Shown: piece after piece, positions 21,473-23,270 of the stretch | How the letters are laid out: each line of letters starts with the position of its first letter | Position numbering within the stretch: the first letter of the stretch is position 1 | From: Escherichia coli | GTDB taxonomy: Bacteria > Pseudomonadota > Gammaproteobacteria > Enterobacterales > Enterobacteriaceae | NCBI RefSeq assembly: GCF_045037415.1 | Contig: NZ_CP173438.1 | DNA: 64,000 bases | Direction: 5' to 3' (one strand) | The notes under the pieces: model-generated | What the model was told of the DNA's origin: nothing | What the model saw: the letters and a program-made list of their open reading frames with translations, nothing else | Databases searched by the model: none | Position numbers and translations under genes: made by a program

Positions 21473-22429
21473 TCAGTGCTGCTGCAAAAAGTCTTCAATG
21501 TCTGCCAGTGAGGATATCCCTTCCATCGGACCTTGCCGCATTACGGCGAGCGCGCCGCTGGCATTTGCATATTGCAGCGCCTTGTGTGCCGGGAAACCGG
21601 ATAAGAAAAGAGTGATAAACGTTGCGCCAAAGCAGTCGCCTGCACCCGTTGGATCGATAATTTCGATATCGTGACCTGCAACATGCTGGGCGTGTAATGT
21701 ACCGTTTTTAAGCTTGTAATAGCTAGCCCCACGCTGGGCGCGTTTTATCGCCACATGTTTTACGCCGCCGTGGAGAAGATCGCTAACAATCTGTTCCTCT
21801 GACAGATTTTTGTGACGCGCGAAGAAAGGGAGTTCGCTTTCGCTGGGGATAAAAATATCCGTATATTCAATCAAATAATCGAGAGCCTGCGCCATTTCAG
21901 GAATGCTCAGCATCTCTTTGCGAATATTGGGATCGAAAGAAACGGTGCCGCCAGCCGATTTGATCGTCGTTATTGCTTTACGCATGACATCGATCATGCG
22001 AAATGAGAACAACGATGAGCCCACAATATGCAGATGGTTACACTGTTTAAGCAGATCCTTATCAATGTGCTCGGCAGTAAACAAACCGCAGGCGCTGTTA
22101 GGGATATTAAAGACGAAATCCCGCAGCTGGGGATTTTGATAACTCACGAACGCCGTACCTGTGACGGCATTGTTCATAACATGGATCCCATCGGTAATGA
22201 CACCTTCATGACGGAGACGCTCTATAATGAGTCGGGCAAAATCATCATTACCAACACATCCAAAGAAGATGGCCCGATGGGACAGTTTTGCCACCTGAGC
22301 AGCAAAAATTGCTGGCGCACCGCTGGGAAATGGCCCGATAAACTCCCCAGGCTGAGTGAATTTTTGATGTGGGTTGCGGGACAAAAACTCGGCCAGCAAT
22401 TCGCCCATAGCGCAGATAGTTATTGTCAC
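21473..22429 (-). CDS. PfkB-family sugar kinase, 2-dehydro-3-deoxygluconokinase (KdgK)-like
   Basis: N-terminus TITICAMGELLAEF resembles KdgK IAVIGECMIEL; C-terminal motif DPTGAGDCFGATF; GTG start with GAGGGG immediately after the regulator stop codon. Confidence 0.8.
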   Translation of the reverse strand: MTITICAMGELLAEFLSRNPHQKFTQPGEFIGPFPSGAPAIFAAQVAKLSHRAIFFGCVGNDDFARLIIERLRHEGVITDGIHVMNNAVTGTAFVSYQNPQLRDFVFNIPNSACGLFTAEHIDKDLLKQCNHLHIVGSSLFSFRMIDVMRKAITTIKSAGGTVSFDPNIRKEMLSIPEMAQALDYLIEYTDIFIPSESELPFFARHKNLSEEQIVSDLLHGGVKHVAIKRAQRGASYYKLKNGTLHAQHVAGHDIEIIDPTGAGDCFGATFITLFLSGFPAHKALQYANASGALAVMRQGPMEGISSLADIEDFLQQH

Positions 22430-22439
22430 AAAACCCCTC

Positions 22440-23270
22440 TCATTCCTGAAGCCTTTCGCGATTGGACCAGGTAAAGCACTCATTACTGGTATAAAGGATA
22501 ACGAAATCAGCCGACTGCAATTGTTGCTGATATTGTTCGTTAATGCTGCGGCTGACGATCACATTTTCTGCCTGATGCAAATGCCCGATAGCAGCCGTTG
22601 ATGGCGCAGGATCGGCGGCAACGATAACCGTCTTATTCTGGGCATGATCGAAACAGAGCTGCCAGGCAGCGGCGAGTCTGGGAACGTTGATATTTAAAGT
22701 ACCATCAGCATCCAGATGGCTGATTTCCAGAATGCTATGTGTAATGGTGAAATGCTGAAGTGCCTGTTCAAGCTGTTTTCCGGCCAGTGCGGTGTCGGGG
22801 CGCAGCATTTCACTGCCAGCCAGTATTATTTCGCCATCAATAAACTGATTTGCCAGCAGCGCATGTTCGGGATCGTTGGTGATCAGACGCAGTTTTTTCA
22901 CTTCGCTGAGCAATGGAATGATCTTACGGCAGATTGTCCCATGTCCAAGAAATAGCGTGTCACGATCGCGAATTAACCGTGCGCAATGTCGTGCTATTTC
23001 CATTTGTTGTGCCAGAGACAATGGCGCGATCGGTTGTATCGCTTCTGGTTCAGAGGAGAGTGGTGTCGCAATAGCACCGCCAAATGATCGCTTTAAATAT
23101 CCCTGTTGCTCCAGATAACTGAGATCGCCGCGGATCGTCACGCCAGAGACACCAAGTTGCGCAGATAAGTCATCAACTTTGATTTCACCCTGGGCGGCAA
23201 CAATTTCTGCAATTTTTAATCTACGTTTCAGTAAGTTAGACGATTTTCTCGGCACGTTAACACTCTTCAT
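22440..23270 (-). CDS. DeoR-family transcriptional regulator
   Basis: 276-aa ORF with N-terminal HTH (RLKIAEIVAAQGEIKVDDLSAQLGVSGVTIRGDL) and DeoR-type C-terminal effector domain. Confidence 0.8.
   Translation of the reverse strand: MKSVNVPRKSSNLLKRRLKIAEIVAAQGEIKVDDLSAQLGVSGVTIRGDLSYLEQQGYLKRSFGGAIATPLSSEPEAIQPIAPLSLAQQMEIARHCARLIRDRDTLFLGHGTICRKIIPLLSEVKKLRLITNDPEHALLANQFIDGEIILAGSEMLRPDTALAGKQLEQALQHFTITHSILEISHLDADGTLNINVPRLAAAWQLCFDHAQNKTVIVAADPAPSTAAIGHLHQAENVIVSRSINEQYQQQLQSADFVILYTSNECFTWSNRERLQE

Follow-up and report, generated by a model that had tools for sequence, protein, structure and literature searches.

Where does translation of the sugar kinase gene tagK begin, and how far does it depend on translation of the repressor gene tagR directly upstream? 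The question arises in a 64,000-nucleotide (nt) stretch of Escherichia coli DNA (contig NZ_CP173438.1; the window hereafter, whose positions serve as coordinates throughout), in which both genes lie on the minus strand. The longest open reading frame (ORF) for the kinase, 21473..22483 (−), encodes 336 amino acids (aa) with the N-terminus MSALPGPIAKGFRNERGFVTITICAMGELL and overlaps tagR by 44 nt (22440–22483). A first-pass annotation of the window described this overlap, considered the long ORF probably wrong and preferred a GTG at 22429 just after the tagR stop, proposed a comparison of orthologue N-termini as a check, and read the arrangement as translational coupling that fixes the regulator:kinase stoichiometry. 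Both the 44-nt overlap and the order of elements that it gave for the minus strand, TGA GAGGGG TTTT GTG, are confirmed. It missed a third in-frame candidate, ATG 22408 (MGELL..., 311 aa), which lies 31 nt downstream of the tagR stop and is the start used by RefSeq and by both tagatose papers. The locus is very probably explained as the junction of a bicistronic tagR–tagK operon in which TagK (318 aa) initiates at GTG 22429.

The minus strand across the junction reads ...CGC GAA AGG CTT CAG GAA TGA GAGGGG TTTT GTG ACA ATA ACT ATC TGC GCT ATG GGC GAA TTG..., so that the tagR stop, a Shine-Dalgarno (SD) sequence, and the tagK GTG together occupy 16 nt, and the SD lies inside the 10-nt spacer GAGGGGUUUU. 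Comparison covered 46 related genome loci from Enterobacteriaceae, Erwiniaceae, Yersiniaceae, Budviciaceae, and Orbaceae, along with 120 listed homologues of TagK at 55–99% identity. A start codon occupies the homologous position in every one of the 46 loci (ATG in 36, GTG in 10). About 110 of the 120 listed homologues begin exactly eight residues before an invariant GELL motif (M-x-x-x-I-C-T-x / GELL), the same register as the product of the GTG start (VTITICAM/GELL), and the N-terminal comparison proposed earlier thus agrees with that start. NCBI-annotated orthologues of 319 aa exist in other genera (P0012, P0013). Furthermore, 36 of the 46 loci carry an in-frame stop no more than 54 nt upstream of the conserved start, which makes an extension like the MSALPG... 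of the longest ORF impossible there.

Thermodynamic and substitution patterns point the same way. Within the 20 nt upstream of each candidate, the best duplex with the 3′ tail of 16S rRNA reaches −8.3 kcal/mol for GTG 22429 versus +0.7 kcal/mol for each of the two ATGs. Among the 96 start-like triplets of the 2-kb region (mean −2.35 kcal/mol), just 2% attain −8.0 kcal/mol, and the match at GTG 22429 is better than chance for the region. An SD of −5 kcal/mol or better precedes the conserved start in 43 of the related loci. The reading frame of the kinase extension is the TagR frame plus one base, with TagR wobble positions falling on second positions of the extension. In three Trabulsiella loci, the overlap shows five to six codon changes that are synonymous in TagR and none that is non-synonymous, and all of them are non-synonymous in the extension frame; the other close relatives give the same overall picture. 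In codons 2–8, which separate GTG 22429 from ATG 22408, most of the variation falls at third positions (entropy 1.67 versus 0.51 at position 2), and by this measure they evolve like coding sequence.

Structural evidence extends the argument to the seven residues ahead of ATG 22408. The AlphaFold2 model of the 318-aa protein has a mean predicted local distance difference test (pLDDT) score of 91.3 and a predicted template modeling score of 0.92, with a pLDDT of 94 over the first ten residues. It places beta-strand 1 at residues 4–8, ahead of G9-E10, so that the 311-aa start would delete this strand. The crystallized paralogue TagD (PDB 3iq0/3k9e), identical in sequence to the TagD encoded by E. 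coli strain 463 (locus L001, 3431–4390), begins MSKVFTIGEILVE (MSKVFTIGE), seven residues before the same Gly.

Comparative, thermodynamic, and structural evidence together place the start of TagK at GTG 22429 with high confidence. The first-pass rejection of the long ORF is borne out, and we infer that GUG is used in vivo. Several observations weigh against this start. As an initiation codon, GTG is weaker than ATG, and on at least 1000 contigs the RefSeq choice is ATG 22408. An ATG at −54 and the open frame behind it are kept in the closest clade (Escherichia, Enterobacter, Superficieibacter, and Trabulsiella), a retention that TagR coding constraint explains. A literature search by locus tag and protein accession yielded just the two tagatose papers, with neither proteomics nor ribosome profiling to back one of the three starts. 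Variation within E. coli does not discriminate between the candidates: of the 1421 genomes with the 111-nt junction, 1397 match it at 99% identity or more, and ETEC1701, the most divergent junction inspected, keeps all three candidate codons intact.

The tagR–tagK pair and the D-tagatose locus to which it belongs are already known. A 2-kb query around the junction finds DNA of 100% identity in E. coli strain 463, where the full tag cluster flanks it, and 1421 of 5426 complete genomes contain the region; the tagR DNA is likewise 100% identical in strain 463, where it is annotated as the DeoR/GlpR regulator WP_000843962.1. Intact genomes carry eight genes at the accC–yhdT site. One arm comprises an aldose-1-epimerase-family gene, a sugar kinase, an ATP-binding cassette (ABC) permease, an ATPase, a binding protein, and a class II tagatose-bisphosphate aldolase, and the divergent arm consists of the DeoR/GlpR regulator followed by a second sugar kinase. 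This locus has been published for E. coli Nissle 1917 and the B2 phylogroup (Ha et al. 2022, PMC9720028), with tagYABCDE named the "tag cluster" and tagR–tagK the "reg cluster" (Park et al. 2025, PMC12226905). The latter study identified TagR as a repressor that responds to tagatose and called the function of the reg-cluster genes previously unexplored.

Differential RNA sequencing (dRNA-seq) in E. coli Nissle mapped a single transcription start site (TSS) 11 nt upstream of tagR and none before tagK (PMC12226905), and both genes lie on one transcript. A terminator plus a promoter would not fit into the 10-nt gap between them. In the window, the −35 and −10 elements of the Preg promoter are intact and match the published Preg of E. 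coli Nissle. A single sigma-70 promoter (Preg) drives a transcript beginning 11 nt before tagR; TagR translation ends at UGA 22442–22440, and TagK would initiate at GUG 22429 through the SD in the spacer. Compared with the reg cluster of the Nissle 1917/B2 locus, the window has these genes at an identical chromosomal position (accC / tag locus / yhdT) and with shared Preg elements, and its DNA there matches B2-type strains, E. coli 463 among them, at 100% identity. It differs in carrying an IS1 deletion that leaves tagRK as an orphan remnant. The published tagK is 936 base pairs (bp) long and encodes 311 aa, whereas the evidence here favors 318 aa from GTG. The junction itself is an ordinary polycistronic spacer in a published locus, and the correction of its annotation is the useful output.

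For the question of coupling at the level of translation, the spacing of the two genes was compared across loci. A TagR homologue (36–92% identity) lies directly upstream of the kinase in all 46 related loci. Stop-to-start gaps of +10 (18 loci) and +1 (16 loci) are the most frequent, followed by +9 (three) and −1 (two), and single loci have gaps of −4, +2, +3, +4, +5, +11, and +21. The gap therefore stays between −4 and +21 nt throughout, indicating that the linkage of tagR with the kinase gene has survived extensive divergence. Unlike the +10 junction of E. coli, relatives in Gilliamella (+1) and Klebsiella pneumoniae (−1) use overlap-type configurations, as does the single −4 locus. The window and the 18 relatives with a gap of +10 lie outside the spacing typical of reinitiation (−8 to about +6 nt).

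Published measurements give this spacing a context. Reinitiation in E. coli falls with distance, with a 5–70% loss at +2 nt, variable outcomes at +14, and an 80–100% loss at +38, and its efficiency is specific to the gene pair (Huber et al. 2023, PMC10666635). The same study lists 203 unidirectional gene pairs (7%) in E. coli K-12 with gaps of +9 to +12 nt that hold an SD, and reads this class as likely independent initiation, or as coupling through long-range interactions. The tagR–tagK pair shares with this class its +10 gap, the SD in the spacer, and a single polycistronic transcript; it shows no difference of substance and is one more example.

An RNA structure that masks the SD was considered as a coupling device. 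RNAfold pairs UCGCGAAA/CUUC at the 3′ end of tagR (last 24 nt) with GAGG/UUUUGUGA, which covers the SD and the start, at a minimum free energy of −11.8 kcal/mol. This candidate was rejected, as the hairpin is no stabler than shuffled sequences (z = −0.68; 46 of 200 shuffles fold as well). Nor is an SD-masking structure conserved across 47 junctions, where the mean z is −0.4 and only three fall below −2. The region from SD to start has a mean unpaired probability of 0.46 over the same junctions.

In its strong form, coupling would mean that tagK is translated largely by ribosomes that have just terminated on tagR, fixing the TagR:TagK ratio. Consistent with this are the shared transcript, the gap of −4 to +21 nt in every locus despite divergence of TagR to 36% identity (with many loci at the classical −4, −1, and +1), and the conservation of the weak GTG start in the Escherichia clade. 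Judged from its footprint size, a ribosome terminating on tagR would cover the tagK SD and reach the GUG 13 nt downstream, so that some termination-linked reinitiation is physically plausible. In addition, overexpression of tagR alone locks the tagatose system off (PMC12226905), indicating that dosage matters. However, independent initiation is the usual reading of a +10 nt gap with an intergenic SD, and the losses reported with distance apply here as well (PMC10666635). Across the 47 junctions, no conserved structure occludes the SD in a way that would tie tagK to upstream translation, a competent SD is kept in 43 of the 46 loci, and short gaps are enriched among subunits of complexes, while nothing indicates a TagR–TagK complex. 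This strong form is unlikely.

A weaker dependence fares somewhat better. Translation of tagK may depend substantially on that of tagR, a tentative reading against which stand the usual interpretation of the +9 to +12 nt class, the gene-pair-specific fall of reinitiation with distance (PMC10666635), and a predicted hairpin that is neither stabler than shuffles nor conserved. The strong SD of tagK can also recruit ribosomes independently, and the expected outcome would be low, roughly proportional co-expression of repressor and kinase rather than a fixed ratio. We infer that coupling of some kind is plausible. The earlier claim of translational coupling thus retains the single transcript and the short gap found in all 46 loci, set against an independent SD at +10 nt and the lack of a conserved masking structure. 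Fixed stoichiometry is not supported: coupling would at most give proportional outputs, and nothing shows that TagR and TagK form a complex.

With initiation at GTG 22429 favored, the two other starts can be weighed in turn. The RefSeq coding sequence, as called by the Prokaryotic Genome Annotation Pipeline (PGAP), corresponds to L001 9945–10880, that is, to ATG 22408 in the window, and encodes 311 aa beginning MGELLAEF.... If translation began there, the upstream GTG and SD would be incidental. In its favor, all RefSeq genomes inspected carry this start in their PGAP annotation, at least 1000 contigs have the 311-aa protein, initiation is stronger at ATG than at GTG, and the tagK of both tagatose papers is the 936-bp gene (PMC9720028, PMC12226905). 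Against this, ATG 22408 has no SD upstream (+0.7 kcal/mol), and the matching codon encodes Met in only seven of the 46 related loci (Ile in 31, Leu in six, Val in one, and Phe in one). Even within the close clade, Trabulsiella and K. spallanzanii have Ile at this position. The seven codons upstream show the third-position-biased variation typical of coding sequence. Starting at ATG 22408 also removes beta-strand 1, which the model predicts with a pLDDT of 94 over the first ten residues and the equivalent of which is included in crystallized TagD, and the NF049991 profile alignment reaches upstream of this Met to residue 5 of the 318-aa form. ATG 22408 is therefore very unlikely to be the start, and the RefSeq call is probably seven codons too short.

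The 336-aa start at ATG 22483 is barely credible and, on comparison of sequences, close to refuted: it belongs to the longest ORF, is deposited on 18 contigs (e.g., ANK03733.1), and has an equivalent ATG and open frame in the five closest genera, but it lacks an SD (+0.7 kcal/mol), its extension is excluded by in-frame stops in 36 of the 46 loci, K. spallanzanii and Serratia lack the matching ATG, the extension peptide is altered by every TagR-synonymous change (Trabulsiella has 0 synonymous and 5–6 non-synonymous changes there), and no homologue profile or solved structure covers the 18-residue extension, with matches beginning at residue 23 of the 336-aa form. The ORF with its MSALPGPIAKGFR extension was accordingly rejected as a six-frame artefact whose ATG is created by the TagR codons Ser-Asn-Glu.

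The protein collection holds three N-termini for this one kinase, at 311 aa (at least 1000 contigs), 318 aa (827), and 336 aa (18), an example of start-site inconsistency between pipelines. A tagK clone that begins at the annotated ATG 22408 would risk giving a misfolded protein, and one based on the 336-aa ORF would carry 18 spurious residues. As a separate oddity, 276-aa DeoR regulators (TagR) are included among the members of the 90%-identity cluster that contains the kinase; gene calls fused or overlapping across the 44 nt shared by the two ORFs may be the cause.

TagK is a PfkB-family kinase, as indicated by its domain assignment, its active-site motif, and its modeled fold. PF00294 is present in all 120 listed homologues, 21 NCBIfam PfkB-type models match TagK (best E = 6e-102), and 63 solved structures of the family do so as well. 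The (D)xTGAGD motif is present as IDPTGAGDCFGATF (DPTGAGDCFG), in which D259–G264 and C266 are invariant in the alignment and D265 is nearly invariant. The model of the GTG-start protein contains the PfkB core fold with an N-terminal strand leading into the conserved Gly, and this strand is missing with the RefSeq start.

Assignment below the family level is less direct. The best NCBIfam match of TagK is the tagatose kinase model NF049991, and filing TagK under it was rejected because the score of 340.7 bits misses the 420-bit cutoff; TagD, though genetically validated, also falls just below that cutoff at 412.9 bits. On sequence, TagK is best described as tagatose-kinase-like, without being filed as an NF049991 member. 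The 2-keto-3-deoxygluconate (KDG) kinase models score lower (NF040938, 122.7 bits; NF052444, 65.6 bits), and an assignment as KdgK was likewise rejected since the equivalog cutoff of 400 bits is missed. The "KdgK-like" label given to the N-terminus at first pass holds as a superfamily resemblance, with the closer match being to tagatose kinase (340.7 versus 122.7 bits). TagD, deposited in the PDB as "putative ribokinase II," and TagK both have the PfkB fold, are 51% identical over 311 residues, and share the N-terminal strand-Gly-Glu motif and the DPTGAGDCFG active-site motif. The two differ in role and regulation. TagD is required for growth on tagatose, and published work found that chromosomal tagK did not rescue a tagD deletion mutant. 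The level of TagK, which is expressed along with the repressor, is nearly constant, in line with published data in which tagR and tagK were both induced only about 2-fold on tagatose, while TagD is induced more than 40-fold.

In the E. coli type strain ATCC 11775, the annotation gives tagK as a pseudogene interrupted by an internal stop (L002 9945–10880), and tagK pseudogenes are also listed in strains S88 and H252 (PMC9720028). TagK therefore appears dispensable in some lineages.

TagR belongs to the DeoR/GlpR family, with an N-terminal helix-turn-helix domain (HTH_DeoR) and a C-terminal DeoRC sugar-phosphate-binding domain. Its orthologues carry PF08220 and PF00455, and its RefSeq name is DeoR/GlpR regulator. 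Twelve NCBIfam DeoR-type models match residues 14–258, none at its equivalog cutoff; the best is AgaR, at 109 bits against a cutoff of 260.

The pairing of this regulator with a TagK-like kinase recurs beside different catabolic genes. The bicistron adjoins an ABC-transporter arm like that of E. coli in 10 loci, and an arm of phosphotransferase system (PTS), 1-phosphofructokinase-like kinase, and aldolase genes in about 29, the latter in Klebsiella, Kluyvera, Citrobacter, Buttiauxella, Gilliamella, and others. Examples of these modules are L083 7198–8951 (K. pneumoniae), L085 7172–8966 (Gilliamella apicola), L010, and L014–L048. The PTS-type tagatose/galactitol clusters of Klebsiella and Gilliamella have the same divergent layout as E. 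coli, with a class II aldolase and catabolic genes opposite the regulator and kinase, and their DeoR regulator is immediately followed by a TagK-like kinase of 56–59% identity. In these clusters, uptake relies on a PTS with a 1-phosphofructokinase-like kinase, whereas E. coli has an ABC transporter and TagD; the stop-to-start gap is −1 or +1 with an ATG start, in contrast to +10 and GTG in E. coli. Retention of the regulator–kinase pair beside two different tagatose uptake systems hints at a regulatory role for TagK and suggests that this unexplored kinase belongs functionally with the regulator.

DeoR-family regulators typically bind or sense sugar phosphates. It is conceivable, if rather improbable, that TagR and TagK, kept together within 21 nt beside two unrelated uptake routes, form a conserved sensing unit and not a chance pairing, in which TagK, produced constitutively alongside TagR, would phosphorylate the first free intracellular D-tagatose to tagatose-6-phosphate, the effector that would release TagR. 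Were this so, tight co-translation would set the induction threshold. In the published model, D-tagatose itself is the TagR effector (PMC12226905). Locking off of the system by tagR overexpression without tagK is compatible with either D-tagatose or a sugar phosphate as the effector, and the data are also compatible with a direct TagR–TagK complex.

Table 1. Features of the tagR–tagK junction and its surroundings, given as positions in the window.
Feature	Coordinates	Strand	Description and basis
tagR	22440..23270	−	D-tagatose cluster repressor, DeoR/GlpR family; 276 aa and a TGA stop; ORF list
tagR stop TGA	22440..22442	−	Stop (TGA/TAA) at the same column in 9/9 aligned close relatives
tagK Shine-Dalgarno GAGGGG	22434..22439	−	Directly 3′ of the tagR stop; GAGG/AGGG core kept in alignment
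TTTT between SD and start	22430..22433	−	Read from sequence
tagK start GTG (inferred true start)	22427..22429	−	Comparative, thermodynamic, and structural evidence
tagK	21473..22429	−	PfkB-family sugar kinase, 318 aa plus stop; paralogue of tagatose kinase TagD (51% identity)
ATG of longest ORF (336 aa), rejected as start	22481..22483	−	From TagR codons AGT AAT GAG
RefSeq/PGAP start ATG (311 aa, WP_001296457.1); probably encodes an internal Met	22406..22408	−	
Preg promoter of the tagR–tagK transcript	23281..23316	−	−35 TTCAAA 23316–23311, −10 TATAGT 23294–23289, TSS ~23281
IS1 copy	23353..24120	+	768 bp; insA/insB ORFs

In this strain, 5.5 kb of the D-tagatose locus (L001 3482–9000) has given way to the IS1 copy. 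The deletion takes out Ptag with its operators, tagY, tagA, tagB, tagC, and tagD except for about 50 nt; tagE, Preg, tagR, and tagK are left. Its flanks are 23271–23352 and 24121–24170. On either side the window matches L001 at 100% identity, with 21000–23352 corresponding to L001 11353–9001 and 24121–26800 to L001 3481–802. The two IS1 junctions occur together in none of the 5426 complete E. coli genomes. Given this gene content, growth of the strain on tagatose is not expected, and the tagR–tagK operon has lost its known targets here.

Two neighboring genes show similar start-site discrepancies. For yhdT (21138–21398, −), the six-frame ORF spans 86 aa and the RefSeq protein 80 aa (243 bp), with the NCBIfam profile aligning from residue 7; as at tagK, the longest ORF overshoots the likely start. 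For accC (25309–26697, −), the six-frame ORF runs from a TTG and encodes 462 aa, compared with 449 aa in RefSeq (1350 bp), so that the longest ORF again overshoots the likely start.

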